Shown: in pieces, positions 1 through 13,211 of the stretch | Layout of the letters: each line of letters begins with the position of its first letter | How positions within the stretch are numbered: the first letter of the stretch is position 1 | From: an uncultured bacterium | GTDB lineage: Bacteria > GCA-001730085 | DNA length: 13,211 nt | NCBI GenBank assembly: GCA_964565945.1 | Contig: CAZMGY010000014.1 | Coordinates: 1 to 13,211 of the forward strand | Direction of reading: 5' to 3' | Made by a program: the position numbers and the translations under genes | Notes under the pieces: model-generated | Seen by the model: the letters and a program-made list of their open reading frames with translations, nothing else | Told to the model about the DNA's origin: nothing | The model's database searches: none

Positions 1-48
1 AGAAGCTTACCAAATACATCTGCAGAATTCTAAACTCATTTAATCTAT

Positions 49-1464
49 TTAAAGTTTCATAATCAGAAACAATTGCCTATACACTGGGAACCCTGTTGCG
101 TCTTCCGACATAACAGAAGGGGGATCGTAATTAACAGACCCATAATAGCTCATTCTAGGGACTCTTGTTACTGCTGCAGGGAACATATGGCGATGCTCAA
201 CTGGTGTCGACCAAATATATTGATGTCTTGGGGACGAACCCTTAGGTCTAACCCAGTGATTATTCAGCGAACTTGAGGTTGTGTTCTGGTAGGTTCGTCC
301 CCAATCTCCAACAGCATGTCCATGTGATATATCAATGAGGATCTCAGGATGATCGTAAGTATGAGTATGGCCCAAAGCCACTTTAGATGCTTCAATAACG
401 GCCTTATTCGTCACACTCGAAGCACCTCGTATGAATTCCCCTCTTAAATCAGGGGTCCCATGTAGTCCATTGCACAAGACCCAACCTTGAGGAATAGAGC
501 TTAATGTTCCTCGGTAAGAAGCAATCACACCCGATGGCAAAATATCATCACCGTTTTCGAAAATGCGACCTTCTGTGGTCAAGTCAACATCATGGGATCC
601 AGCTCCAATCTTAACATTACCCGTTTCACCTTCGATCATCAGAATAGGCTCACGTCCATCTATACGAGAATAGGACTCGACCACAAGTCCACGTTTTTTC
701 CAAATACCATTTCTACGTACCGAACCACCAACACGAAAACGCAAAGCATCACCATTAAACTTGGCTAAATTCTTCACTTGATCACCACCAGCTGGAGCTC
801 TTCGACCAGCAATAGCTTTACCCGCTCCAGAATCACTCACATACATGCCCCAAAAATTGTCCCCTGCAGACATAAGATTGTTAAAAAAAACTTTTTGACT
901 CACATGCAAATCTCCTGCAACCCTAATCTCTGCCGCAGAGGTCGTCGAACGTTCCACTTTTTTGTACTTGGTTGTCGACTCATTTTGACCTGCAGAAATA
1001 AAAATATCATGTTCCGTTCTGAGCGCTACAACACTGTCCGAGGCACGAACACTGTTGAATTCGCCAATCAAAGCATTCAGATGCGACCCCATATAAACTC
1101 CGCTGTTATTTTCAGAAAAAACAATTGAACCACCCGAAATATCGATATAGCTGTTCACCTGATTGATTGTTTTTTTGTTACCAGTGACGGGGTAGGGTTC
1201 AACTAGTTCATTCAAAATATACAAACCCTTATGAAACACAACAGGCTTAAGGTTCACTGTTTTTAAGTCCCCCTTCACACCATAAATCGAACCTGCTACG
1301 TTCAAATTATTGGCAAATAATAATTCAAAGTCGCCAAAGGGCGCAGGAACAAAACGCGAAATCTCGAGCTTCCTCTTTTTCGCCCAAAGAGAATCTTGCC
1401 CGATCATCATCAACGTAAGTAACATCACTGCAAAAATTTTAAGATTCCATCGTATCATTTTCAT
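49..1464 (-). CDS. Secreted tail-fibre-tip / tail-collar-domain-like protein (third, most downstream paralog)
   Basis: The long ORF 49..1479 starts in the track at a GTG (1479) that overlaps the upstream gene's stop. The ATG at 1462-1464 is preceded by GAGGGGTGAT (SD-like). It gives MKMIRWNLKIFAVMLLTLMMIGQDSLWA, which has a basic n-region, a hydrophobic core and an A-x-A-like end. The C-terminal third reads ILPSGVIASYRG..IPQGWVLCNGLHGTPDLRGEFIRGA, followed by HTH, HGH and HRH motifs, and ends in FLIMKL. It shares clear architecture and motifs with the two upstream genes. Confidence 0.85.
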   Translation of the reverse strand: MKMIRWNLKIFAVMLLTLMMIGQDSLWAKKRKLEISRFVPAPFGDFELLFANNLNVAGSIYGVKGDLKTVNLKPVVFHKGLYILNELVEPYPVTGNKKTINQVNSYIDISGGSIVFSENNSGVYMGSHLNALIGEFNSVRASDSVVALRTEHDIFISAGQNESTTKYKKVERSTTSAAEIRVAGDLHVSQKVFFNNLMSAGDNFWGMYVSDSGAGKAIAGRRAPAGGDQVKNLAKFNGDALRFRVGGSVRRNGIWKKRGLVVESYSRIDGREPILMIEGETGNVKIGAGSHDVDLTTEGRIFENGDDILPSGVIASYRGTLSSIPQGWVLCNGLHGTPDLRGEFIRGASSVTNKAVIEASKVALGHTHTYDHPEILIDISHGHAVGDWGRTYQNTTSSSLNNHWVRPKGSSPRHQYIWSTPVEHRHMFPAAVTRVPRMSYYGSVNYDPPSVMSEDATGFPVYRQLFLIMKL

Positions 1465-1475
1465 AGCATCACCCC

Positions 1476-2990
1476 TCACGTCTTCATCAAAAAGATAACT
1501 CTTGCAAAAGCTGGAAGTTCCTCCTCAGCACCAGAACTCCCACGGGATAAACTCCTACTGGCGGGTGCAGTCTTGACCTCGCCGCTGTACATCGGAAGAT
1601 CATAAACAACTTTACGACCAGAGGTCCCCATCAAATGCCCATGCAAAATAGGGAGCGCTCTCCATTGGGGAGTTGCAGTTGACGCCCAACCGCTATGGTA
1701 TTGGTTTCCATCAAAGTTGAACTTGGTGAAATTTCGATCCATCGTACTAGAACCAGCGTTATAAATCCCTTGGGTTGACGTCATACCACCTGAAAGAGAC
1801 GTCCACTTCATAGGAACAAAACCATTGACAGAGTTGTGATCGTGGTCAATCGAATAATTAAACTGAGGACGAGAGATCCAGTGCTGATGAGTATCATCAC
1901 CAAAAGAAGGGTGCCGATTAGTCCCATCAACTAGGGTAGATACGCCAGCAGGCGCACTCCGAAAAAAACTATCAACCATATCAGGGGTAGGAACCCCATT
2001 CACAACCTGTCCGTTACAGACAACCCATTCATTCCCAGAAGGGGGTGTATTACCTATGAATCCTACGATAAGCCCTGGAGGAACTAATTGTTGATTATTT
2101 TGCACAGCATACGTACCTGTGATGTCTAAATCGCCACTAATATAGATGGCACCATCGCTATCACGAATGGACATGAGCGTTTTATCAACATCATCTTCAA
2201 TAATCAAACCTGATGTTGCCCTGTCATCGGTGCGAATATAAAGATCATTTTTAAATGCTGGCTTTGTGGAATTTTGACCAATGCTGGCTTCCGAGCTAAT
2301 CGACCACACATTATCTGTACTGGAAAATCTCACACGTGGTATCGATACTTTGTCTCCCAAAAGATGAACGGTACCACTACCAGCATTATCAACAAAACGC
2401 CAGTTGGGCGCATCATCCGTTCCTAAAGAGGAGTTGACAGTGCTACTAGCACCTGGTTGAAGATAAATTTTTCCACGACTTCTTAACGAAATCGGCTCAC
2501 TAAATGCATTAACATCATTATTGAACACTAAGCCGTTGAATGAGTTCTGAAAAAATAAACCGCCACTTAGGCTATGATTATCAAACCGAAACTCTACTTT
2601 GTCCGATCTAAACATAATAAAATTAGACATTTGATCGTAAGTCTTAGCCGAATAAGGCTTTAAAAGCTCATTGGTCACACGAATCTCTTTAGGAATATAC
2701 AAAGGTTTCAAATCTTCTAACCGGCTCGGTGTCGAAAACAAGTCTGGAAGAGCACTGAGCACACCCGAAACCCAAAGCGTATTGGCTGTAATGTTGGCAT
2801 AATCACCCTCGGGTCCAGGGGTCGAATTGTAAAATTCCCTATTAATAATGTCTGCATTAGCAGATCCTTGCGCCGTCAAGGTGCTATTTCCAGTAGAAGC
2901 ATCATTGTCCACACTTTCAATAGAATAGACAGGAGAAACAAAAACTAATAGCATCAAACTTATTAAGCTATAAAAAAATCTGCATTTCAT
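1476..2990 (-). CDS. Secreted tail-fibre-tip / tail-collar-domain-like protein (second paralog)
   Basis: The ORF 1476..3014 starts in the track at a GTG at 3014. The ATG at 2988-2990 is preceded by GAGTGAGGTGTGAT and gives MKCRFFYSLISLMLLVFVSPVYS, a signal-peptide-like N-terminus. The C-terminal part reads LVPPGLIVGFIG..PSGNEWVVCNGQVVNGVPTPDMVDSFFRSA, followed by HQH, HDH and HGH motifs, and ends in VIFLMKT. Confidence 0.85.
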   Translation of the reverse strand: MKCRFFYSLISLMLLVFVSPVYSIESVDNDASTGNSTLTAQGSANADIINREFYNSTPGPEGDYANITANTLWVSGVLSALPDLFSTPSRLEDLKPLYIPKEIRVTNELLKPYSAKTYDQMSNFIMFRSDKVEFRFDNHSLSGGLFFQNSFNGLVFNNDVNAFSEPISLRSRGKIYLQPGASSTVNSSLGTDDAPNWRFVDNAGSGTVHLLGDKVSIPRVRFSSTDNVWSISSEASIGQNSTKPAFKNDLYIRTDDRATSGLIIEDDVDKTLMSIRDSDGAIYISGDLDITGTYAVQNNQQLVPPGLIVGFIGNTPPSGNEWVVCNGQVVNGVPTPDMVDSFFRSAPAGVSTLVDGTNRHPSFGDDTHQHWISRPQFNYSIDHDHNSVNGFVPMKWTSLSGGMTSTQGIYNAGSSTMDRNFTKFNFDGNQYHSGWASTATPQWRALPILHGHLMGTSGRKVVYDLPMYSGEVKTAPASRSLSRGSSGAEEELPAFARVIFLMKT

Positions 2991-3006
2991 ATCACACCTC
3001 ACTCTT

Positions 3007-4509
3007 TTACACACTTGCTAATTTTACAATGAACACAACATCGGCTCTTGGTAAGTTCCAATAGTTACTTCCCGATGTTGCACCATTAAAGGTAACAACT
3101 CTAGGGAGAGTCCTAAGTGGAGATTCAGGAATATCCACTTGCACAGTCCTGTTCCCAAGATGATGATAATGGTCCATGGACCCCACAGCTATGCCCGAGG
3201 GAGCGTGCGGACCAACTTTTAAAAAACAATAGTAAGGGGTATATCCATCATAGTTTGACGAATATCCAGACTCTGTTTGAAAGCTTTCGACTTGATAAGC
3301 CTTATATGCACCGCTTACAAGCCTGGTATTAGGCCAACCTATACTGCCACTCACTTTCCTGCCTCCATCATAGATGTTTGTGACCGTTCGAGCTCCCCAA
3401 ACAGAAGTGGTTTTCAAATCAATAAGCCCAAAAGATCCTGCAGGATGCTTATGCGTAACATCTGGATTGGATATAGCATTAGGTGTATGAAAATGGCTAT
3501 GGGGGGCACCTCCTCCAAAATCAGATACCTGAGGAAGCGGGCGTCCTCTTAAAAAACGACCAACAAGATTGGGGGTTACGTAGCCATTACTAAGTACTTG
3601 CCCATTGCACACGGCCCATCCTGAAGGGACCGAAGTTCCACAAAACATCATAATAGTCCCTGCTGGAACAATGTTTTGACCATTAATTTTAACCCTCTTC
3701 TTAACATATATATTGCCGCGCATAGTTACTTTGTCATTCGCAGGATCAACTTTAAGAGTCACTTCATTATTATCATTTTTAACAATTAACAAGCCTTGTT
3801 CATCTTTATTAACCGATAAAACAATTGCCTCGTCAAAACCAGCAGAGTTAATATTCTTTACGATCATCTGAGGAGACACATGCGAATTTCTTTTTTTATG
3901 CTCAAAATTAATAGGCATTTTTGTACGAAACTTCAGATTTCCTTGAACATACACATCTCCAGTAGGACTACTTTTATCCCAATGCTTATAATGACCTGGT
4001 GATTGAGAAAATAAAGGCTGCAAAAATACAGACCCTGTACTTCTTAATTGCATACCTGCGTCACTACCAGTCGTGTCGGTCAAAAGACCTACGCGTTGGT
4101 TATGTGCATAAATACCAGAAGATCGGGAAAACATCATTTTATTCGACAATAACGATAAAGAATCATTTGAAGCGGAAAGCACTGTATCCAAAACGGTATA
4201 AACATTATCGTCCGTTGGGATAATATCTCCCACAACAAAACCTTTATGAAGGTTCACTTTATTTATTTGGGCTAAAGAACTCACAGTGCTACTTTCAGTA
4301 TTGTAAATTCCACCAATCATTTTGAGACCATAGGTTCTCACACGACCATATTTGGCATAAGGAGTGGGGTAAAACGTGGTCGTAAAATGCTTTCGCACAG
4401 TCTTAGAATCTCCATAAACAGGGGCATCTAAGGCTAAATTTAAACCGAACACTAGAATCATTGACAGTGCATGACAACGTTGGACTTGAACTTTAAATTG
4501 AACATTCAT
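3007..4509 (-). CDS. Secreted tail-fibre-tip / tail-collar-domain-like protein (first paralog)
   Basis: The ORF 3007..4614 has a 35-codon N-terminal extension in the track that starts at a GTG and runs through a promoter-like region. The ATG at 4507-4509 is preceded by GGGGTGAAGAT and gives MNVQFKVQVQRCHALSMILVFGLNLALDA, which is signal-peptide-like. The C-terminal part reads IVPAGTIMMFCGTSVPSGWAVCNGQVLSNGYVTPNLVGRFLRGR, followed by HSHFH, HKH and HYHH motifs, and ends in VVFIVKLASV. Confidence 0.85.
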   Translation of the reverse strand: MNVQFKVQVQRCHALSMILVFGLNLALDAPVYGDSKTVRKHFTTTFYPTPYAKYGRVRTYGLKMIGGIYNTESSTVSSLAQINKVNLHKGFVVGDIIPTDDNVYTVLDTVLSASNDSLSLLSNKMMFSRSSGIYAHNQRVGLLTDTTGSDAGMQLRSTGSVFLQPLFSQSPGHYKHWDKSSPTGDVYVQGNLKFRTKMPINFEHKKRNSHVSPQMIVKNINSAGFDEAIVLSVNKDEQGLLIVKNDNNEVTLKVDPANDKVTMRGNIYVKKRVKINGQNIVPAGTIMMFCGTSVPSGWAVCNGQVLSNGYVTPNLVGRFLRGRPLPQVSDFGGGAPHSHFHTPNAISNPDVTHKHPAGSFGLIDLKTTSVWGARTVTNIYDGGRKVSGSIGWPNTRLVSGAYKAYQVESFQTESGYSSNYDGYTPYYCFLKVGPHAPSGIAVGSMDHYHHLGNRTVQVDIPESPLRTLPRVVTFNGATSGSNYWNLPRADVVFIVKLASV

Positions 4510-4545
4510 ATCTTCACCCCACACATTAACTCCAACTTCTAAAAT

Positions 4546-4575
4546 AGCATACCATACGTCGCACTGAAAAATCAA
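4546..4575 (-). promoter_or_regulatory. Putative sigma70-type promoter for the first fibre-tip-like gene (TTGATT-18-TATGCT)
   Basis: The minus strand reads ttgatt tttcagtgcgacgtatgg tatgct about 37 nt upstream of ATG 4509. The same hexamers are conserved in the duplicated copy. Confidence 0.45.
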
Positions 4576-4629
4576 ATAATACCAACAAATACCAATACAA
4601 TCAAGTAATAACACTTTGAGATTATAATG

Positions 4630-4745
4630 AATGTTGGACTTGAACTAATGTTGGAGTTGAACTTTAAATTGAACATTCATATTTTCACCCCGCACATTAA
4701 CTTTGGCTTCTAAGATAGCATACGTCGCACTGAGAGATTATCAAG
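4630..4745 (-). repeat. Duplicated copy of the promoter / RBS / first codons of the 3007..4509 gene (original at ~4478..4575)
   Basis: The segment 4647..4738 aligns by eye over ~92 bp with 4478..4569. The aligned elements are tttaaattgaacattcata-t-ttcacccc-cacattaac...ttcta-a-atagcata...cgtcgcactga. An extra 17-bp internal duplication (aatgttggacttgaac / taatgttggagttgaac) is present. The copy retains -35, -10, SD and ATG (4678-4680), but the reading frame stops after 11 codons (MNVQFKVQLQH*, 4645..4680). Confidence 0.85.
4717..4744 (-). promoter_or_regulatory. Putative duplicated promoter (TTGATA-16-TATGCT) upstream of the 11-codon relic ORF
   Basis: The minus strand reads ttgata atctctcagtgcgacg tatgct. 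Its geometry relative to ATG 4680 matches that of the proximal copy relative to ATG 4509. Confidence 0.4.
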
Positions 4746-4749
4746 TTAA

Positions 4750-4765
4750 CATAATATATATTATG
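4750..4765. repeat. Perfect 16-bp AT-rich palindrome CATAATATATATTATG in the giant-gene / fibre-gene intergenic region
   Basis: The sequence is self-complementary as read. It lies 24 nt downstream of the giant gene's stop codon and just upstream of the distal promoter copy. Its function is unknown. Confidence 0.9.
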
Positions 4766-4788
4766 CGACACTCTAACAACGCCCCTTC

Positions 4789-7700
4789 TTAGGCGCTATA
4801 CAAGGTCGAGTTCCGTTCAAACGTTCGAGCTAAGCTTACTCCTTCAACGAGCGGTGTTCCCTCAATAAGTTGAGAGAAAGATGCCCCTCCAGCCTTAGCA
4901 TCCAACGTGATTTCAGCCATATTAATCAATAATAATAGCTTTTGAACAAGTCTCTGAAGATCTTCGTTACCAATAGCTTGGACCCGCTTAATAGCCGCAC
5001 TCAAAGCCTCTACCGAATCACTAGGAAGAGCCAGTATATCTAAACCCAGATCTGTAAGCTCACCAAGAGAATCCTGGTAGCCCCTTAATCCTACCACTAA
5101 AGCTTTCAAGTTGGACACCTCCATGTTAGCCATTGCTAAAGCATGAACCTTAGCATTGAATAGTCCAAGAGCTATAATATACTCCTTAGTGTCCGCCGTA
5201 ATAGCTTTAGAAGTTAAACCATATTGTAGAAGCATTTCTGCCTCCGAAACAACCGCAGCTTTTGTCATCATCGAAGCTTTGATAGCTTCAAACAAAGCCG
5301 TATATTCAAACACCGCCTCCGAAGGAAAGCTTTCTTTAACGCGAACAACTCCAACCCAACGACTCCTTTCGGGACTCCAGCGAGTAACACCCGCAAACGG
5401 ACTATCCTCTGATTTATCAGTAAGATAAACTGTTTCTGTTTTCAAAGCAGCACGATCATTTTCTCTAAACTTAACTTGTTTTTTAGTTATACCCTCAGCG
5501 CGAGTATCAAAAGGATTAGCTTTACCTTTAAATCCTTGAACACGAGCAGCAGCTTCTGGGCTTACCAATTCTCCTCCCAAATCTAAGGCTAAAAGACTAG
5601 CACTCACTCTCTCTTCTTGCTTACCAGCTTGATTGCGACTTAAAAAGGCCTCAAAACGATCCTGCGTTACCAAGGGCCTTATATTCTCTGCAATTTTTCC
5701 ATAAAAAAGCTTGGTATTATCTGATTTTGAAAATTCAAATACTTCAGAACTATCTTTTTTATACAATTCTACAGAGGACTCTCCAGATTTAACCATGAGC
5801 AAAGCATAGACCGCCACAAGCTCGTCTGTTGTAGCTGCAATCAGGTTATCAAGATCTTTTTTAATTTGAGAACGAATTGCTTTTTTTGTTAGCGCAGTTG
5901 CACTCAAGTCATCCACCGACTTTTCCCACCGTACTAAGTTAAAAGTCTTTGACTTAGTCACCTCACTTGACGCCCCATCTTCTTGTTCAGCTTTTGCGTT
6001 CACCTTTAGAAATTCATTGTAATTCGCTGTATTCAGGTAGGGCTTTAGAGCCTCTTGAATTTCTTTATAACGCCACTTTGTTTTTGAAACTTTAACTGTT
6101 CCACCATTTTTTAGGTGCACTGTTCGATCGGAAGTACCAGCTTTAGCCCTAATCAAAGCATAGGCCGCCTCCTGCCTATTATATGTCTCAAATCCAACCC
6201 GGCCCTCAAGCCCTCTTTGAATTTGCCCAGAGAGTCCAGCTCTCGCTTGCTCAGGTGCATCCAATGATTGCACCACCTCTTCCCAAGTCTTTGACTTAGT
6301 ACGGGATGTCTGATTACTTACTCCAGGATCGTTCTCTTTCACCTTCTGTTTACCTCGTGCGTTCAGGGCTAAAAATTTAGTGTAAGCCCTTATATCCACG
6401 GAGAGCCGTAGATCGTCTGCAATTTTTCCATAAAAAAGCCTGTTATTTGATAGGCTTGAAACTTTTAATATTTCACCACTTATTGTCTTCAAGGTTGGTA
6501 CCTCGGACCTACCAGCTTTAACTATGAGCAAAGCATAGGCCGCCTCCTGCCTATATCCCTCAAATCCAACCAGGCTCTCAAGGTCTCTTTGAATTTGCGC
6601 AGAGAGTCCTTGTTTTCCCCCCGAAGTTATATCCAACGCTTGCACCGCCTCTTCCCAAGTCTTTGAATTATTCGCCTTACTTGACGCCCCATCTTCTTGT
6701 TCAGCTTTTGCGTTCACCTTTAGAAATTCATTGTAATTCGCTGTATTCAGGTAGGGCTTTAGAGCCTCTTGAATTTCTTTATAACGCCTCTTTGTTTTTG
6801 AAACTTTAACTGTTCCACCATTTTTGCGGTTCACTTTTTGATTGGAAGTACCAGCTTTAGCCATGATCAAAGCATAGGCCGCCGCCTCCCTATCTGTCTC
6901 AAATCCAACCAGGCTCTCAAGCTCTCTTTGAATTTGCCCAGAAAGTCCCTCTTTTACTTCGGCAGTTGCATCCAACGTTTGCACCGCCGCTTCCCAAGTT
7001 TTTGAGTCATTCGCCCTACTTGACGTCCCATCTTCCTGTTTACCTTTTGCGTTCAGATCTAGAAAGGCAAAATAATGCTCTGTATTCAGGCGGGAGGGGT
7101 CTAAACCCTCCGCGATTAAGCGATAGAACCACTGCTTTGCTAGTGAAGGCTCAACTATCCTACCATCTCTTAGCTTCAATTCTCGCTTGGGGGAAGAAGC
7201 AGGCGCATTTGAAACCAAAGGAATATCAGCTCTAGCCAGCATGAAAGCATAGGCCGCCTCCTCCTTATACTCCTCAAATCCAACCAGGTTCTTAAAAGCT
7301 CTTTTAAGGTTCGCAGAGACTTTGCTTTTCGTCACCTCATTTATAACAGTCAACCCTTGCAACACGTCTTCCCAAGTCTTTGAATCATTGGCCTTACTTG
7401 ACGTCGCACCTTCCTGTTCACCTGCATCGAATTGGGCAAGTTCATTTTTTGCGTTCAGCTCTAGAAATTGCTTGTACTTTGGTCTACCTATTATACTGGG
7501 ATCTAGGGCATTTAAGATGCCTTGATAGGCCCACCAGATGTCCGAAGATTTAACTGTTCCACCACCTCTTAGCTTCAATTCTTGATTGCCAAGCCCCTTC
7601 GGAGTCGCTCCTTTCTTCCCAGTCAAAGATGAACCAGTTCTAAGCAGGATCAAAGCATAGAGCGCCTCACTCGCATATTGCTCAGATCCAACAATGTTCT

Positions 7701-10700
7701 CAAAATCTTTTTTAATTTCATTGCGAAGCCTTGTTTTATTTTCCTGCTCTAGATTATCTAGGCCTGCCAGTGTGCTCTCTAGAAAAAGGTCTATATTCAA
7801 CGTCGCATCTTTAGCAGACGGGTCCTGTATACCTCTTTTGTTCAGCCGTAGAAAGTTAGCGTAATTCTCTTTATTCAGGTAGGGCTGTAGAGCCTCTCTA
7901 AGTTTCCTATACGGCACCAGGTTATAGTTTCCCTCTACGGTTCTACCATCTTTTAACTTCAATTCTTGATCGGAACCACTTCTAGACATGATCAAAGCAA
8001 AGGCCGCCTCCTCCTTATATTCGTCAAATCCAACCAGATTCGGAAGATCTCTTCGCATTTGAACCAAAAGTCCTTGTGTTGTTATCCCCGTTTCATCCAA
8101 GCTTTCCAGCACCTTTTCCCAATTACTTACTGCAAGAGCTTTCTCTTGCACCTCACCTATCGCCGCAGCTTGATCTTGCTGTTCACCTTTTGCGTTCAGC
8201 TCTAGAAATTTCTTGTACTTTGCTTGATCAAAGAGCCTATGTTCCCACATAATCTCTCCGACTCTTATATAATGTGAACGAGGGATTTCTGAAACTTTAA
8301 ATGTTTTGCCACCTTTTAGCTTCAATCTTACAGTGGTGGCCAAATCAGCTCTATCCATGATCACAGCATAGGCCGCCTCTTCCCTATAGTCCTCAAATCC
8401 AACCAGATTCTCAAGATATTGTTTTATGTCATTACGAATTGCTTCTATCATGTAAGAAGATACCTTCATAGAATCCAAGTATTTCAGCGCCTCTTCCCAA
8501 AGAACTTTCTCTTTCACCTTACCTGCCGCCGCAGCTTGATCTTGCTGTTCACCTTTTGCGTTCAGATCTAGAAATTCCTTGTACTTTGCTTGATTAATGA
8601 AGGTGGATAGATCCTTTTCGAGGGCTTGATAGTGAGGAAGCAGGCTGGGGAGACTAGGGGCAGCATCAGTTATTGTACCATCCTCTAGGGTCAATTTTAC
8701 ATCGGAAAAACCAGCTCTAAGCTTGACCAGAGCATAGATCGCCTCATCCGTATATTTCTCAAATCCACGCACCCGCTTAATATCTTTTTGAATTTCCGTA
8801 AAAAGTGCTTCTTTTATTTCATTAGATGTAGCCCGCAAGTTGTCCAGCACGTATTTCCAACCATTAAGAACGACCTTTACTGTACCATTGTCTAGGATCA
8901 ATTGTGTATCAATAGATATTTCTTCTTTTTTATCCCCAGACAAGTTTTCCACCACGTCTTCCCCATTATTAGGAGCGTCCTCTTGCGCCTCACCTGTCGC
9001 CTCAGCTTGCTGTTCACCTTTTGCGTTCACCTTTAGAAATTCATGGTACTTTGCTTGATCAATGAAGGTGGATAGATCCTTTTCGAGGGCTTGATAGTGA
9101 GGAAGCAGGTTGGGGTCATTAGGGACAGTATCAATTATTCTACCATCCTCTAGGGTCAATTTTACATCGGAAAAATCAGCTCTAAGCTTGACCAGAGCAT
9201 AGGCCGCCTCATCCGTATATTTCTCAAATCCACGCACCTGCTTAATATCTTCTTGAATTTCCGCAAAAAGTGCTTTTTTTATCACGTCGTCTTCCCAATT
9301 ATTAGGAGCGTCCTCTTGCGCCTCACCTTCCGCCTCAGCTTGCTGTTCACCTTGTGCGTTCAGATCTAGAAATTCCTTGTACTTTGCTTGAGCAAAAAGT
9401 GCTTCTTTTATCACGTCTTCCAAATTATTAGGAGCCCCCTCTTGCGCCTCACCTTCCGCCGCATATTGCTGTGCATGTTTTGCGTTCATCTCTAGAAATT
9501 CATTGTACGTTGTTTGATTAATCAGGAGGCGTAGCGCCTCTTCGAAATCTCGATAATGAGAAAGCAGAGGCTTTCTGGATGTAAGTCCAGATGCTCCATT
9601 AATCATTTCACCATTCTTTAGGATCAATTGTGGACTGGAAAAACCAGCTCTAAGCCTAACTATAGCATAGACCGCCTCATCCATATATTTCTCATGTCCA
9701 TGCAGAGACTCCATATCTTTTAGAATTTCCGTAAAAATTTCTCCGTATATGTTCTCAGACACATCCAGCAAGTCTTCCAGCACATCTTCCCAAGTCCACT
9801 CAGCATCATTAGGAGCCCCCTCTTGCGCCGCACCTGTCGCCTCAGCTTGCTGTTCACCTTGTGCGTTCATCTCTACAGAAGCTTTCTCTTGCGCCTCACC
9901 TTGCTGTTCACCTTGTGCGTTCATCTCTACAGAAGCTTTCTCTTGCGCCGCACCTGTCGCCTCAGCTTGCTGTGCACCTTGTGCGTTCAGGGTTAAAAAT
10001 TCATTGTAATTCGTTCTATTTATCTGGGGCCGTAGAAGCGCTTCAATTTCTTTATAACGCCCCTCTGTTCTTGAAGTTGTAACTGTTCCACCACCTTTTA
10101 GCTTCAATTCTTGATCGGAAACACCACCTTTAGCCTTGATCAAAGCATAGAGCGCCTCCTCCCTATATTGCTCAAATCCAACCACCCTCCTACGCTCTTT
10201 TTTAATTTGATTATAAAGACCTTGTCGTGTACTATGATCTGCACTCAACTGATTCACCGCCTCTTCCAAAATCTTTAACTCCTTCGCCTCACCTAGCGTC
10301 GCACCTTGCTGTTTATCTTTTGCTTGGTTCGCTAGTAGAAAGGTACCGTAAAGAGAGAGAAAGCGTTCCATTGAGTTAGCTAGAATTATCTTCTCTTGTT
10401 CTTGAACAAATTCTATTTCTAACTCTTCTGTTGAATTTGTGAAGACTGTTTTCTTCCATGCTTCAAAAGAAGGATAGCCGCCACCCTCAACCTCCTGAGC
10501 CTTCCTCCACTTTGCTAAAGAACCAAATTTCTCCTTATTATTAGGATCCTCCATAAAAACAAAAGTAGCGAGAAGATCAAGCATAATTTGTCTATAAGCA
10601 GACCTCGTTTCGCTTGATTCTGGAACTTCAACTACTGCACCATTTTTTAGATTCACTTCATTCTTGGAAAGAGAACCTTTAGCCTTAGCCCAAGCATACA

Positions 10701-11835
10701 TCGCCATAAAAACGTCCGTCTCAGCTCCAACCACTTCTTGCTTAACCTTCTCTTTCATAGACTTATCACCAAGGAAAGCTTTTCTTTTAGAATTTTCCAA
10801 CATCCAAGCATTCCAAGCTTCTGCGCCTGTCGAAGCAGCTACTACAGGCTCTTCTTCCTTTTTCTTTTGCTTTTGTTGTTGTTGACCTTGTTCTTCGTTT
10901 TTGTGGTTGGCACTTAAAAAGTCATTGTAATCCACTTCCGATATCCGCCCAGAGCCTTCTAAAACTCCTGCTATCGTCTTATAATACTCCGTCTTCCATA
11001 TTGATTGTCCTATTTGAATTGGGCTATTATCTATTGTTTCTAATTTTATCCCCTCGACCATACCACCTTCAATCCTGGCCAAAGCCAAGAGTGCCGCCAA
11101 CTCGTTTTTCTCAGATCCAACTATTTTCCTAACATTGTGTTGCAGTTCCTTAAAAAAGGGGTCTGTTAGCCACATCCCAGCTGCCACAAGCACATCCCTC
11201 GCCGCCTCTAAACTGTGGGATGATACCTCTTTACCAGCTACTACTACAGTTGTTTGCTGTTTTTCCTCTTTACGCTGGGTTCTAAGCATCTCTGGCGTAA
11301 CTTCAGGAGGAGTTTCTAGCTCCAATTTCTCACCCAAAACAATCAATGTTTTGCGCACAACGAATTTACCCTCAATTTCACCAGCAAGCGCTTTCCTTGC
11401 AAACAAACGCAACGCAGTATTATTCTTATCCGCAGTTAAACCAATCGCCGAACCTCCATCCGATGGACGAAACACCAGCTCAACAAACTGCTTATCCAGT
11501 CCCATTTTACTTGCAATCGCTTCCTTCACATCGTCTACAGTTTGGTCCGGCATAAGTTTCACATCAACTTCAAAATGATCACGCGTAGCCGCAAAACCAA
11601 ATTTGGTAGCACTCTCACCAGAAACTTTACCCCAACTCTCAACCGTAAGCTTGCCCAAATCGATCTCGTTTGGTATCTTCTCTTGAAGATCCTTTCCTGT
11701 AACCTGCATCTCCACAAGCGCCTGTTCAAAACCACGCAATTTCGTAGATGTGGCCAAAGACCATGCCCCTCTTGACACCACTGTTACCATAGCAAACACT
11801 AAAAATATTACCCATAGCCTCATAATACTATTCAT
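4789..11835 (-). CDS. Giant (2348 aa) signal-peptide-bearing tandem-repeat protein, unrecognised repeat family, with a unique C-terminal domain
   Basis: The ORF is 7,047 nt without interruption. The ATG at 11833-11835 has GAGGAGA 9 nt upstream and a TTGATA-17-TATAAT promoter further upstream. The N-terminus MNSIMRLWVIFLVFAMVTVVSRGAWS is a hydrophobic signal or anchor. About 14 repeat units are marked by (L/V)VGFExY(R/K)EEAAYALI..AG ... LKLK.GGTVKVS ... Y.EFL.LNAKGEQQ. The non-repeat C-terminal region (aa ~2100-2348) ends in GVSLARTFERNSTLYSA. Confidence 0.9.
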   Translation of the reverse strand: MNSIMRLWVIFLVFAMVTVVSRGAWSLATSTKLRGFEQALVEMQVTGKDLQEKIPNEIDLGKLTVESWGKVSGESATKFGFAATRDHFEVDVKLMPDQTVDDVKEAIASKMGLDKQFVELVFRPSDGGSAIGLTADKNNTALRLFARKALAGEIEGKFVVRKTLIVLGEKLELETPPEVTPEMLRTQRKEEKQQTTVVVAGKEVSSHSLEAARDVLVAAGMWLTDPFFKELQHNVRKIVGSEKNELAALLALARIEGGMVEGIKLETIDNSPIQIGQSIWKTEYYKTIAGVLEGSGRISEVDYNDFLSANHKNEEQGQQQQKQKKKEEEPVVAASTGAEAWNAWMLENSKRKAFLGDKSMKEKVKQEVVGAETDVFMAMYAWAKAKGSLSKNEVNLKNGAVVEVPESSETRSAYRQIMLDLLATFVFMEDPNNKEKFGSLAKWRKAQEVEGGGYPSFEAWKKTVFTNSTEELEIEFVQEQEKIILANSMERFLSLYGTFLLANQAKDKQQGATLGEAKELKILEEAVNQLSADHSTRQGLYNQIKKERRRVVGFEQYREEALYALIKAKGGVSDQELKLKGGGTVTTSRTEGRYKEIEALLRPQINRTNYNEFLTLNAQGAQQAEATGAAQEKASVEMNAQGEQQGEAQEKASVEMNAQGEQQAEATGAAQEGAPNDAEWTWEDVLEDLLDVSENIYGEIFTEILKDMESLHGHEKYMDEAVYAIVRLRAGFSSPQLILKNGEMINGASGLTSRKPLLSHYRDFEEALRLLINQTTYNEFLEMNAKHAQQYAAEGEAQEGAPNNLEDVIKEALFAQAKYKEFLDLNAQGEQQAEAEGEAQEDAPNNWEDDVIKKALFAEIQEDIKQVRGFEKYTDEAAYALVKLRADFSDVKLTLEDGRIIDTVPNDPNLLPHYQALEKDLSTFIDQAKYHEFLKVNAKGEQQAEATGEAQEDAPNNGEDVVENLSGDKKEEISIDTQLILDNGTVKVVLNGWKYVLDNLRATSNEIKEALFTEIQKDIKRVRGFEKYTDEAIYALVKLRAGFSDVKLTLEDGTITDAAPSLPSLLPHYQALEKDLSTFINQAKYKEFLDLNAKGEQQDQAAAAGKVKEKVLWEEALKYLDSMKVSSYMIEAIRNDIKQYLENLVGFEDYREEAAYAVIMDRADLATTVRLKLKGGKTFKVSEIPRSHYIRVGEIMWEHRLFDQAKYKKFLELNAKGEQQDQAAAIGEVQEKALAVSNWEKVLESLDETGITTQGLLVQMRRDLPNLVGFDEYKEEAAFALIMSRSGSDQELKLKDGRTVEGNYNLVPYRKLREALQPYLNKENYANFLRLNKRGIQDPSAKDATLNIDLFLESTLAGLDNLEQENKTRLRNEIKKDFENIVGSEQYASEALYALILLRTGSSLTGKKGATPKGLGNQELKLRGGGTVKSSDIWWAYQGILNALDPSIIGRPKYKQFLELNAKNELAQFDAGEQEGATSSKANDSKTWEDVLQGLTVINEVTKSKVSANLKRAFKNLVGFEEYKEEAAYAFMLARADIPLVSNAPASSPKRELKLRDGRIVEPSLAKQWFYRLIAEGLDPSRLNTEHYFAFLDLNAKGKQEDGTSSRANDSKTWEAAVQTLDATAEVKEGLSGQIQRELESLVGFETDREAAAYALIMAKAGTSNQKVNRKNGGTVKVSKTKRRYKEIQEALKPYLNTANYNEFLKVNAKAEQEDGASSKANNSKTWEEAVQALDITSGGKQGLSAQIQRDLESLVGFEGYRQEAAYALLIVKAGRSEVPTLKTISGEILKVSSLSNNRLFYGKIADDLRLSVDIRAYTKFLALNARGKQKVKENDPGVSNQTSRTKSKTWEEVVQSLDAPEQARAGLSGQIQRGLEGRVGFETYNRQEAAYALIRAKAGTSDRTVHLKNGGTVKVSKTKWRYKEIQEALKPYLNTANYNEFLKVNAKAEQEDGASSEVTKSKTFNLVRWEKSVDDLSATALTKKAIRSQIKKDLDNLIAATTDELVAVYALLMVKSGESSVELYKKDSSEVFEFSKSDNTKLFYGKIAENIRPLVTQDRFEAFLSRNQAGKQEERVSASLLALDLGGELVSPEAAARVQGFKGKANPFDTRAEGITKKQVKFRENDRAALKTETVYLTDKSEDSPFAGVTRWSPERSRWVGVVRVKESFPSEAVFEYTALFEAIKASMMTKAAVVSEAEMLLQYGLTSKAITADTKEYIIALGLFNAKVHALAMANMEVSNLKALVVGLRGYQDSLGELTDLGLDILALPSDSVEALSAAIKRVQAIGNEDLQRLVQKLLLLINMAEITLDAKAGGASFSQLIEGTPLVEGVSLARTFERNSTLYSA
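5965..6111 (-). repeat. 147-bp block nearly identical to 6679..6825 (repeat unit 13 vs unit 11)
   Basis: Direct comparison of the text shows acttgacgccccatcttcttgttcagcttttgcgttcacctttagaaattcattgtaattcgctgtattcaggtagggctttagagcctcttgaatttctttataacgcc[a/t]ctttgtttttgaaactttaactgttccaccattttt. I see a single mismatch. The offset is 714 bp. Confidence 0.9.
6679..6825 (-). repeat. Partner copy of the 147-bp block at 5965..6111
   Basis: Same evidence as 5965..6111. Both copies encode ...GGTVKVSKTK(R/W)RYKEIQEALKPYLNTANYNEFLKVNAKAEQEDGASS. Confidence 0.9.
9821..9989 (-). repeat. In-frame tandem micro-repeat: two 54-bp units (9847..9900, 9901..9954) nested in a 120-bp direct repeat (9821.. and 9941..)
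   Basis: The 54-bp unit ttgctgttcaccttgtgcgttcatctctacagaagctttctcttgcgcc(t/g)cacc occurs twice back to back. It encodes GEAQEKASVEMNAQGEQQ twice within AQQAEATGAAQEKASVEMNAQGEQQGEAQEKASVEMNAQGEQQAEATGAAQEG. Confidence 0.9.
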
Positions 11836-11903
11836 TGTCTCGTATCTCCTCTACTCAATTACTACCTGCGCAACAAACATAACTCAATTCTAGTTGTTCG
11901 GAT

Positions 11904-11932
11904 ATTATAACATCTAATTCAATACTTATCAA
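11904..11932 (-). promoter_or_regulatory. Near-consensus sigma70-type promoter of the giant gene (TTGATA-17-TATAAT)
   Basis: The minus strand reads ttgata agtattgaattagatgt tataat. The -10 element lies ~69 nt upstream of ATG 11835, and GAGGAGA (11845-11851) lies 9 nt before the ATG. Confidence 0.6.
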
Positions 11933-12138
11933 TCATTTTTTTAATAAATGACAATATTTTTTTATGTTTTTTAAACTTTATGCTCAATACGAGCCTCCTA
12001 GAGATCAAACATCCTTTTGGCCACTTGGCCACTCTTAACGAATAACCTCCGCAAAATGAAATAGCAATATACCCCTCCCCTATTATTTTCATCGCAGGGT
12101 TTTCACAAACTTTTTCTGTATCCCATGGCTTTTGGACC

Positions 12139-12374
12139 CTATACAAGGTTGAGTTCCATTCAAACGTCCGAGCTAACTTTACTCCTTTAACAACCGATGT
12201 TCCCCCAATAACAGCAGGGAAAGCTACTCCTCCAATCCTATGATCTAACATATTTTGATACATATTAGTCAGAAATAATAGTTTATGAACAAATCTTTGC
12301 TTCAGCGAGAGGTGTCGGGTTACCTGTTCCGAAAGCTCGTTAATATCTCTAAAATGTTGTTCTGTTTTTAATTC
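12139..12374 (-). pseudogene. Orphan, diverged copy of the giant protein's C-terminal ~79 codons (gene relic)
   Basis: Minus-strand translation gives ELKTEQHFRDINELSEQVTRHLSLKQRFVHKLLFLTNMYQNMLDHRIGGVAFPAVIGGTSVVKGVKLARTFEWNSTLYRV. This aligns with the giant protein's ...DLQRLVQKLLLLINMAEITLDAKAGGASFSQLIEGTPLVEGVSLARTFERNSTLYSA. About half the residues are identical by eye, and the last 17 are nearly identical. DNA similarity is visible between ctatacaaggt.gagttcc.ttcaaacgt.cgagctaa at 12139.. and the matching text at 4796... An in-frame stop lies at 12375-12377 with no upstream body. The native stop is lost, so the frame reads on to 11919 through the giant gene's promoter. The track's 114-aa ORF 11919..12263 is part of this relic. 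Confidence 0.6.
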
Positions 12375-12502
12375 TTATTCTTCTCGACAATGATTTACGA
12401 ATATATTTTAAAAAATAATATTCGACAGTATATTAAAAAGATTTTAATGTTAAAACATCTAGCCATTATCCTTAATATTTAAGCAGATATAAACATCCTT
12501 TC

Positions 12503-12691
12503 CTATATTTTTATCTTAAAAATCTTATTCTGTAAATTTAATTTAAAATATTTCTTGCCGTTCCCTTCATAAATACAATCAAAATCATGCCTTGAACTAC
12601 TTGCCGTTTCAAAATTTATATTTTTCAAAAGATAGTTTTCAAAGTCATTCTTGCTAGGATGATAACCCCCCATCCAAAAATAAAAAAGCAC
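12503..12691 (-). CDS. Doubtful small ORF (62 aa from a GTG), possibly a fragment with a truncated hydrophobic N-terminus
   Basis: The frame is open back to 12733 without an ATG and reads KDFFIGTIIAVGISVLFYFWMGGYHPSKNDFENYLLKN.... The hydrophobic helix is cut by the only available starts. I see no SD and the surroundings are very AT-rich. It could be a relic or noise. Confidence 0.15.
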   Translation of the reverse strand: MLFYFWMGGYHPSKNDFENYLLKNINFETASSSRHDFDCIYEGNGKKYFKLNLQNKIFKIKI

Positions 12692-12721
12692 AGAAATCCC
12701 AACTGCTATAATGGTTCCAAT

Positions 12722-12751
12722 AAAAAAATCTTTTCACCCAGTGGGTGAAAA
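12722..12751 (-). terminator. Hairpin (9-bp stem, 3-nt loop) followed by a T7 run on the minus strand; terminator-like, with no identified cognate gene
   Basis: The stem is ttttcaccc (12731-12739) paired with gggtgaaaa (12743-12751), with loop agt. On the minus strand the hairpin is followed by ga + ttttttt (12728-12722). The stem is AT-rich and no minus-strand gene lies upstream of it in the window. Confidence 0.25.
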
Positions 12752-12897
12752 CACCAAAGGTAAGCAAACCTTTCTAAGCCTTAACCAAACTTTTGTGCTT
12801 ATGAATATTTTAAACTATAAATTCACCCCCACCAACGAACTTCTAAGTGCCCACACACCCTTGTTAGCACCCGCACATTTAATGCAATCACTTAGCC

Positions 12898-13211
12898 TTG
12901 ATAAAAGCCCTTGAGCAGCACTTCCCTGCTTTAAATAGTAATAGTACTATTAAATCTTTAACTTTGATCAATACCTTTTGTTGGAATGAAAAAGTTGCTA
13001 CTTTTACCCAGTGCTATGGTGCTGATGAATTAGATTCAGGGAATCTGCTTATGTGGACTATGGTTTTATCGATGCGAAGGATCTTCGCTATGTCAGTACG
13101 GTGGAACGGACTTGGGAAGAACTTTGCCAAGACCACTTGATGTATCGCTACAACAGCGAAGATGATTTTGAAATCCCGTCCTCGTCGTTCACGGTGTGTA
13201 CCTTTTGGATG
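12898..13211 (+). pseudogene. GH15 (glucoamylase/trehalase-like glycoside hydrolase family 15) gene relic, 3' part, frame-disrupted, continues beyond the window
   Basis: The frame from 12898 reads ...FCWNEKVATFTQCYGADELDSGNLLMW. A different frame from 13029 reads ...YGFIDAKDLRYVSTVERTWEELCQDHLMYRYNSEDDFEIPSSSFTVCTFWM and stays open to the window end. Joined, they match my recollection of the conserved GH15 C-terminal pattern (F.Q.Y....LDAS.LLMP..GF....DPR...T...I...L....L..RY...DD........F..C.FW). The join requires a frameshift near 13052-13058. Weaker similarity extends back to ~12780 in a third frame segment (..HLMQSLSLDK|ALEQ..). The ~350-400 codons expected upstream are absent. Confidence 0.55.

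Follow-up and report, generated by a model that had tools for sequence, protein, structure and literature searches.

A strictly conserved tandem trio of divergent tail-collar paralogs with signal-like N-termini, a candidate trimeric fibre system of an uncultured bacterium

We have analysed a stretch of 13,211 nucleotides from an uncultured bacterium (GTDB lineage Bacteria; GCA-001730085; GenBank assembly GCA_964565945.1, contig CAZMGY010000014.1, positions 1 to 13,211 of the forward strand), hereafter the window, which carries a triad of tail-collar genes that we call A, B and C in the order of transcription. In the list of open reading frames (ORFs) of the window, the triad appears as three co-oriented minus-strand ORFs at 49-1479, 1476-3014 and 3007-4614. 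Reading of the DNA located the revised ATG starts at 4509 (A), 2990 (B) and 1464 (C), and these starts are supported by a GGGGTGA/GAGGTG-type ribosome-binding site placed a few bases 5′ of each ATG. With the revised starts, the proteins measure 500, 504 and 471 aa and are separated by gaps of 16 nt (A-B) and 11 nt (B-C), in agreement with the lengths of about 470-505 aa and the gaps of 11-16 nt given by an initial annotation made from the sequence alone. Scans for promoters and terminators gave results at chance level only, and the window contained zero tRNA or Rfam matches. The three genes, whose orthologs in loci L001 to L005 are described below, are as follows.

3007..4509, minus strand: gene A, first of the triad, 500 aa, from the ORF and the start reading; Pfam Collar 29.3 bits; orthologs in five other loci; layout of signal-like N-terminus, N-terminal module (N-module), shaft, collar, three histidine-x-histidine (HxH) motifs, 92-aa head insertion and C-terminal strand
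1476..2990, minus strand: gene B, second of the triad, 504 aa, starting 16 nt past the A stop codon; orthologs in L001 (frameshifted), L002, L003, L004 and L005
49..1464, minus strand: gene C, third of the triad, 471 aa, starting 11 nt past the B stop codon; orthologs in L001, L002 and L004; PHROG tail-protein match at 5.6e-13

Pairwise BLASTP comparisons of A, B and C gave 23-24% identity across ~380-400 aa (E = 9e-17, 9e-18 and 2e-18), a similarity far beyond chance. The three proteins are therefore true paralogs, as highly divergent as the initial annotation had proposed. Most of the shared patches it had listed were recovered in A, B and C, namely the motif xLR(S/T)...(I/V)(F/Y)(L/I), the motif (V/L)P.G.I...G...P.GW..CNG...TP(D/N)(L/M)...F.R and the C-terminal F(I/L)(V/M)K strand. 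The patch NEL(V/L)(E/K)PY has to be restricted to B and C, because A presents GDIIPTDD at this place.

Relatives of the triad were sought in 5.8 billion clusters, in 1.84 billion representatives (with a family profile), in 185,579 species genomes, in JGI metagenome contigs and in viral contigs. The family turned out to be very rare, since all these searches yielded only five other loci: L001, L002, L003, L004 (which lies on the same contig as L006-L008) and L005. A scan of genome contigs with patterns from close relatives found no matches, a second genome scan left the contig of L004 as the only full-length relative among the 185,579 species, the metagenome contig scan added no further full-length loci, and a word-index search with B returned B alone. 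By tblastn, every protein of the triad has its own ortholog in each locus. Gene A is followed by gene B in six of the six loci, the window included, and C comes next in the four that extend far enough (the window, L001, L002 and L004), L003 and L005 ending inside B. Orthologous loci thus do not carry one copy only: five of the five related loci have A-B and the three long enough also have C. Identity within the groups of orthologs was 26-48% for A, 29-37% for B and 35-47% for C, and 17-24% between groups. Because the orthogroups separate this cleanly, the triplication is older than the divergence of all six loci, and the view that old, diverged copies have been kept in strict tandem holds throughout the family.

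The single named relative, L004, belongs to 'PVC group bacterium (ex Bugula neritina AB1) isolate AB1-3', from a bryozoan, and its contig probably corresponds, to judge by numbering and name, to the AB1_div bin (1.91 Mb, 34.7% GC, PVC superphylum, bryozoan ovicells). There, the triad is flanked on one side by uppS-cdsA-dxr-rseP-proS-nusA-infB and on the other by an SMC-like gene. Genes of phages or injection systems were present neither in the window nor in the 19.5 kb around the L004 triad, and families of sheath, tube and baseplate proteins were absent from the window and from the L004 flanks.

Several loci showed particularities of their own. In L004, a 200-aa ORF between B and C (12917-13519) repeats the N-terminal part of C in truncated form and is the only extra copy in any locus. 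The B ortholog of L001 (4991-6392) contains two frameshifts in a contig with a coverage of 2.17x, and is either a pseudogene or an assembly error. In L005, a gene fragment upstream of A (3-149) ends in ...LPTHQEMLFIIKVSS, a C-type collar C-terminus; this locus may have the gene order C-A-B or a repeat of the set. Upstream of A in L003 (102-185), two tandem terminator-like hairpins (AAAAAACCAGTGATGAACTCACTGGTTTTTTTT) suggest that the triad begins its own transcription unit there.

The N-terminus of each triad protein resembles a signal peptide.

4411..4509, minus strand: A signal-peptide-like N-terminus, residues 1-33; hydrophobic maximum 2.14, K/R before it; DNA reading
2922..2990, minus strand: B signal-peptide-like N-terminus, residues 1-23, MKCRFFYSLISLMLLVFVSPVYS; hydrophobicity heuristic and DNA reading
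1381..1464, minus strand: C signal-peptide-like N-terminus, residues 1-28; hydrophobicity heuristic; helix at residues 2-21 in the AlphaFold2 (AF2) model, pLDDT 77-89

The heuristic used scored the Kyte-Doolittle 12-residue maximum (2.0 or more) and K/R before the hydrophobic segment. An N-terminal hydrophobic segment was found in 12 of the 12 family members, preceded by K/R in all complete N-termini but one. At its called start, the A protein of L001 shows a hydrophobic maximum of 1.22 and no K/R, and its longer ORF reaches 1.99. With such signal-like N-termini, A, B and C are predicted to be exported, most likely through the Sec pathway.

Directly after the signal-like segment comes the N-module, of ~110-160 aa and with the consensus YPxPxGDYE ... 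LRSxGxIYLQP. Its landmarks stand at near-identical distances in A, B, C and all their orthologs (12 members).

3910..4392, minus strand: A N-module, ~residues 40-200, YPxPY...LRS.G.(V/I)(F/Y)LQP; landmark spacing kept in 12/12 members; common to P0129, P0138, P0147 and P0168
2346..2858, minus strand: B N-module; BLASTP matches to P0133 (1e-37), P0129 (4e-17) and P0138 (4e-16), and alignment
880..1377, minus strand: C N-module; BLASTP matches to P0147 (1e-14) and P0129 (7e-13); AF2 pLDDT 70-81 for residues 70-155

A profile search revealed that P0129, P0138, P0147 and P0168 are module-only relatives, that is, proteins 328-377 aa long in which a signal peptide and this N-module precede a different C-terminus. 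Two module-only relatives lie inside type IV pilin gene clusters (L131, 2-2489, and L088, 50-2189), with a ComP_DUS-type pilin (Pfam, 41 bits) upstream and two proteins carrying N_methyl N-terminal methylation motifs downstream, and two adjoin LysM-YkuD (L,D-transpeptidase), accA and cysS. The presence of these relatives in pilin clusters and beside LysM-YkuD suggests a role of the N-module in the cell envelope or on a filament, which we take as a lead only. In viral contigs, the back-translated N-module motif YPAP(F/Y)GD(F/Y)E had zero matches, and the proteins matched only from residue ~216 onward, with no full-length relative; according to these searches, the N-module does not appear to be a phage part. 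The beta-rich shaft that follows the N-module comprises ~92 residues in A and B and ~125-145 in C, which has a shaft insertion of its own (NFWG...). The A proteins of L002 and of L005 carry lineage-specific insertions.

The C-terminal half opens with the tail-collar motif VPxGxIxxFxGxxxPxGWxxCNG...TPxLxxxFxRG, present in a short form in the three proteins.

3535..3687, minus strand: A short-form tail-collar motif, residues 275-325, VPAGTIMMFCGTSVPSGWAVCNG...TPNLVGRFLRG
1950..2102, minus strand: B short-form tail-collar motif, residues 297-347
418..558, minus strand: C short-form tail-collar motif, residues 303-349; AF2 pLDDT 74-89

When scored as whole proteins with the hidden Markov model (HMM) of the Pfam phage tail collar family PF07484, whose gathering cut-off is 24 bits, A reached 29.3 bits, above the cut-off, and B and C reached 14.9 and 13.5 bits, below it. 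The collar motifs of B and C matched the family's own collar HMM at 1e-19 to 1e-24. In A, B and C the PF07484 alignment is not full-length but spans model positions 1-24 of 57 only, and CNG leads straight into TP(D/N)L..F.R, which accounts for the missing LF..IG..YG segment already noticed at first reading. The same short collar form was found in the aligned segments of the Photorhabdus fibre Pvc13 and of Bizionia C24 (6ov6).

Downstream of the collar, each protein contains three HxH motifs, with the head insertion between the second and the third.

3163..3501, minus strand: A region with HxH motifs 1-3 (H337/H339, H353/H355, H447/H449), the head insertion lying between the second and the third
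1635..1889, minus strand: B region with HxH motifs at residues 368-370, 383-385 and 450-452 and a 65-aa head insertion
187..369, minus strand: C region with HxH motifs at residues 366-368, 381-383 and 424-426 and a 41-aa head insertion; codons checked on the DNA

Twelve residues are invariant across the 12 members, which are 17-48% identical, and five of these residues are HxH histidines (H337, H339, H355, H447 and H449 in A numbering, each in 12/12 members). Spacing is conserved in A, B and C from the collar through HxH 1 to HxH 2, and again from HxH 3 to the C-terminal strand. The segment between HxH 2 and HxH 3 has a length specific to each paralog: ~87-137 aa in A, 64-66 aa in B and 41-52 aa in C. 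As in the gp37/gp12-type layout, HxH motifs were thus found both downstream of the collar and ahead of the C-terminal strand that returns to it, and in the family profile the final one is aligned with the HDH of Pvc13. In L004, A (10001-11524) and B (11540-12907) have lost the first histidine of HxH 2, which is kept by C of L004 and by the nine other members. We considered this shared loss as a sign of co-assembly and rejected it, the evidence being too weak at roughly p = 0.17 from a simple count.

Comparison with known fibres gave a consistent result for the tip. In PHROG, the collar region was matched by families of tail fibres and of tail-collar fibres, down to 5.6e-13, and all hits were to tail-fibre families. 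A profile of the 12 members searched against the PDB matched Pvc13 (9qgo), the tail fibre of the Photorhabdus virulence cassette and the best solved relative, with E = 4e-12 over profile positions 255-420, which include the last HxH. The same search returned the phage short tail fibre 9cuy, the Pa223 fibre 9nxk, Bizionia C24 (6ov6, bacterial) and an adenoviral fibre, and T4 gp12 matched the family profile with E between 7e-4 and 8e-3. The homology to Pvc13 is confined to the tip. The AF2 model of C had moderate confidence only in the N-module, the collar and the last strand, and with this model (pLDDT 61) Foldseek retrieved predicted structures of viral tail-collar proteins at 6e-7 to 1e-3. 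Along with the Collar score of A, these matches to PHROG families, Pvc13, 9cuy, 9nxk and T4 gp12 bear out the relation of the C-terminal domains to tail-collar and fibre-tip folds, and the C-terminal half of the proteins is, by sequence comparison, homologous to the tips of phage and injection-system fibres. In T4 gp37, an early segment of the chain and its very C-terminal end together make up the collar and flank the receptor-binding domain (PMC12724248), and HxH motifs coordinate iron on the trimer axis (PMC11705849). The layout of the triad proteins (collar start, HxH, HxH, head insertion, HxH, terminal strand) would fit this plan.

We also looked at how collar genes are arranged elsewhere. 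Among ~120 unrelated loci, there were 89 single genes, 16 pairs and 13 trios, and none had a larger set. Sixty of 180 collar proteins were single chains with exactly three collar motifs spaced ~140-215 aa apart, and one had four; the fraction is biased, because multi-domain proteins rank higher in the profile search, but the stop at three is not affected. Such chains would be predicted if one three-fold unit can be assembled from three unlike modules. Other trios occur in Kiritimatiellae, Lentisphaerae and Verrucomicrobiota (L016, L025, L043 and L064; 330-390 aa, with signal peptides) and in lake metagenome contigs (L119, L120 and L125; 450-463 aa, no signal peptides). A position-by-position orthology of A, B and C to these other collar trios was sought and none was found, so collar trios seem, on sequence grounds, to arise repeatedly. 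The initial annotation had singled out this trio for being exported and three times larger per protein than small MdpB-like collar proteins. Signal-like N-termini do run through the 12 members of the family and the proteins do measure 471-504 aa, but neither trait is unique to the triad, given that there are other collar trios with proteins of 330-460 aa, some of them with signal peptides. The triad is set apart by its extreme internal divergence, by an N-module that is not viral, by its rarity and by a conservation that is strictly one-to-one-to-one.

We propose that A, B and C would constitute an operon for a Sec-exported fibre built on the plan of phage receptor-binding proteins. Each chain would run from the signal peptide through the N-module, presumably the proximal attachment end, and the beta-rich shaft to a distal tip. 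At this tip, the short-form collar motif would lead into an ascending segment that contains two HxH motifs, then into a head insertion of paralog-specific length (~92 aa in A, 65 in B and 41 in C) and a descending segment with the third HxH, and a final hydrophobic strand would return to the collar. If T4 gp37 and gp12 are taken as a guide, three chains would be arranged around one axis, each HxH layer offering six histidines to one metal ion. Seen in this light, the triad most likely encodes Sec-exported, metal-stapled trimeric fibres acting as adhesins. Regarding their composition, our leading reading, to which we give somewhat less than even confidence, is a single A:B:C heterotrimer with an asymmetric head, which would serve a host-associated PVC-type bacterium as adhesin or receptor-binding fibre. 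The three proteins probably work together, because the order A-B is kept in six of six loci and C follows in four of four. A heterotrimer is favoured because these ancient orthogroups always occur together, in the same order and with gaps of 11-16 nt, which fit coupled, equimolar expression, and also because tandem collar genes stop at three and many single chains have exactly three modules.

A number of observations weigh against this proposal. The AF2 monomer of A, based on a 6-sequence alignment, had a pLDDT of 32 and was unusable, and that of C, based on 41 sequences, stayed at 61; Foldseek matches to the PDB were weak (6ov6, E 0.014; T4 gp12, 5iv5, E 0.021; TM-scores of 0.2 at most). The hydrophobicity heuristic was the sole basis for calling signal peptides, and secretion genes for crossing the outer membrane were absent from the window. 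As to the heterotrimer itself, shaft and head lengths are unequal among A, B and C, and the A insertions in L002 and L005 are without counterpart in B or C of the same locus; an in-register, intertwined heterotrimer would have to loop such insertions out.

These length differences are what one would predict if A, B and C each made a homotrimeric fibre of its own, with a separate tip and ligand, so that they formed a co-expressed repertoire of adhesins without co-assembly, comparable to the fibres of Bdellovibrio or to the several receptor-binding proteins of one phage. We regard this as quite possible, although we lean against it. Paralog-specific head insertions (92, 65 and 41 aa), differing shafts and unmatched A insertions would all follow naturally, collar-domain phage fibres and Pvc13 are themselves homotrimers, and the invariant HxH motifs are equally expected, since separate homotrimers would also keep them. 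A repertoire, however, should vary in number and order, and here one A, one B and one C stand in fixed order, the only extra copy being the truncated C fragment of L004. The stop of tandem collar genes at three, the three modules of fused chains and the virophage DSLV2, whose collar subunits are unequal in length yet heterotrimeric, point in the same direction, that is, towards the A:B:C heterotrimer.

Distinctly improbable, in our estimation, is that the triad has a structural role in the periplasm or cell envelope, a cell-wall role, or the role of a tip-associated factor on a type IV filament, and is not a free-standing surface adhesin. The idea draws on the module-only relatives inside type IV pilin clusters (L131 and L088; ComP_DUS 41 bits, N_methyl), on those that adjoin the LysM-YkuD L,D-transpeptidase gene and on the fact that a Sec signal by itself reaches the periplasm only. 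However, that context comes from distant relatives that do not have the tip, none of the six triad loci has pilin or peptidoglycan-related genes beside it, and this type of tip is known for binding external receptors. Finally, remnants or cargo of a prophage, a tailocin or an extracellular contractile injection system (eCIS), with tail-fibre genes whose products are assembled in the cytoplasm onto a baseplate, would explain why Pvc13, an injection-system fibre, is the best solved relative and why PHROG matches are all to tail-fibre families, but we consider this origin very unlikely because of the signal-like N-termini of all members, the housekeeping flanks and lack of such genes in the window and in the 19.5 kb around the L004 triad, the absence of the N-module from viral contigs and the conservation of the trio across loci that are just 26-48% identical.

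The A:B:C heterotrimer can be extended into a more specific picture, in which the fibre would be obligate, asymmetric and held by metal, a cellular Sec-exported counterpart of phage receptor-binding proteins in host-associated PVC-type bacteria, with the N-module docked on an envelope structure, such as a type IV filament, and the three unequal heads forming one composite site for a ligand of the eukaryotic host. In this full form the picture is unlikely. To our knowledge, nearly all receptor-binding fibres described so far are homotrimers. If the three chains co-assemble, the triad would offer a clear case of a bacterial heterotrimeric receptor-binding fibre of phage type, for which the sole precedent that we found is a virophage trio reported in 2025, and an asymmetric tip would break the three-fold symmetry that limits recognition by homotrimeric fibres. 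The occurrence of collar genes or modules in threes, and not more, hints that heterotrimers may be widespread and overlooked in the 'MdpB / tail collar' class. The triad is also a candidate host-attachment factor for the poorly known PVC-type lineages that carry it.

Upstream of the triad, the window contains a giant gene, and a duplicated segment precedes A.

4789..11835, minus strand: giant upstream neighbour, 2348 aa; at least 12 repeats of ~115-165 aa and a conserved ~280-aa C-terminal domain
4476..4738, minus strand: A leader with a duplicated ~90-nt segment; copies at 4476-4572 and 4647-4738, 88% identical

The giant protein has a signal-like N-terminus and repeats anchored by EAAYALI and Y.EFL.LN, and may be a functional partner of the triad. 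Over 280 aa, its C-terminal domain shares 37.5% identity with the product of a gene upstream of the L002 triad. Zero relatives of the protein were found in Pfam, NCBIfam and the PDB, the repeat proteins encoded upstream in L001 showed no significant similarity to it, and it is absent upstream of the L004 triad. Just upstream of the giant gene, a 114-aa ORF (11919-12263) has its first 41 residues 56% identical to the last 41 of the giant protein and looks like a relic of the 3′ end of another copy of the giant gene. From 12000 to 13211, GC content falls to 0.34-0.37, compared to 0.40-0.45 elsewhere, and no convincing gene was found. In the A leader, the upstream copy of the duplicated segment, 171 nt away, keeps the ribosome-binding site and the ATG, which opens an 11-codon ORF (MNVQFKVQLQH) followed by a stop. 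This copy could represent a decoy, a leader ORF or the scar of a duplication, and the duplication was not found upstream of A in the related loci.

Among known systems, complement C1q, encoded by the tandem genes C1QA, C1QC and C1QB, is an obligate heterotrimeric fibre with stalk and head and a metal ion on the axis of the head. The comparison is an analogy only, since C1q is eukaryotic, has a collagen stalk and is unrelated to the triad in sequence and fold. The tips of T4 gp37, T4 gp12 and Photorhabdus Pvc13 (PDB 2XGF, 1OCY/1PDI and 9QGO) share with the triad the collar, the HxH motifs and a C-terminus that returns to the collar. These proteins are homotrimers mounted on the baseplate or fibre of a particle assembled in the cytoplasm, whereas the triad consists of three distinct chains with signal-like N-termini and no particle genes. 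Likewise, a Pvc13-type eCIS fibre belongs to an injection-system cluster and begins with a helical baseplate adaptor, in contrast to the signal-like segment and beta-rich module at the N-terminus of the triad proteins. MdpB-like/PF07484 collar proteins, including the other trios, have in common with the triad the collar motif, a C-terminal ...PPY..L.(Y/F)IM(K/R) strand, HxH motifs and a frequent arrangement in tandem trios. They differ in being mostly 217-390 aa long, without the N-module, and the other trios are 30-68% identical internally.

The mosaic adhesive trimer (MAT) fibres of Bdellovibrio bacteriovorus illustrate a cellular, non-phage use of phage-like trimeric fibres (PMC10769870). 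As described, they share the design of the triad proteins, which is not a shown homology: the signal peptide, to which the signal-like segment of the triad proteins would correspond, is directly followed by an N-terminal domain that is conserved and beta-rich, then by a shaft and by an adhesive tip that varies. MATs are encoded by 21 dispersed homotrimer genes with swapped tips and, in some cases, S74 chaperone domains, and the deposited structures cover their C-terminal parts only (PMC10769870), whereas the triad is a fixed trio of ancient paralogs with one type of tip.

The system that most directly bears on stoichiometry is that of the virophage DSLV2, in which three consecutive collar proteins of 196, 205 and 247 aa are reported to form a heterotrimer, as indicated by AlphaFold3 models, co-purification of the three subunits when one is tagged and fibres seen by electron microscopy (PMC12724248). 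DSLV2 and related Synechococcus phages resemble the triad in having three consecutive co-oriented paralogs of unequal length, a collar domain, a gp37-like tip and a conserved trio. The DSLV2 proteins are virion components of 196-247 aa without signal peptides, whereas those of the triad, with 471-504 aa, are encoded at cellular loci and have signal-like N-termini, an additional N-module and shaft of ~270 aa that was not found in viral contigs, and a greater divergence (17-24% identity). The suggestion of a hetero-oligomer made in the initial annotation finds in the DSLV2 trio, by analogy, a published precedent.

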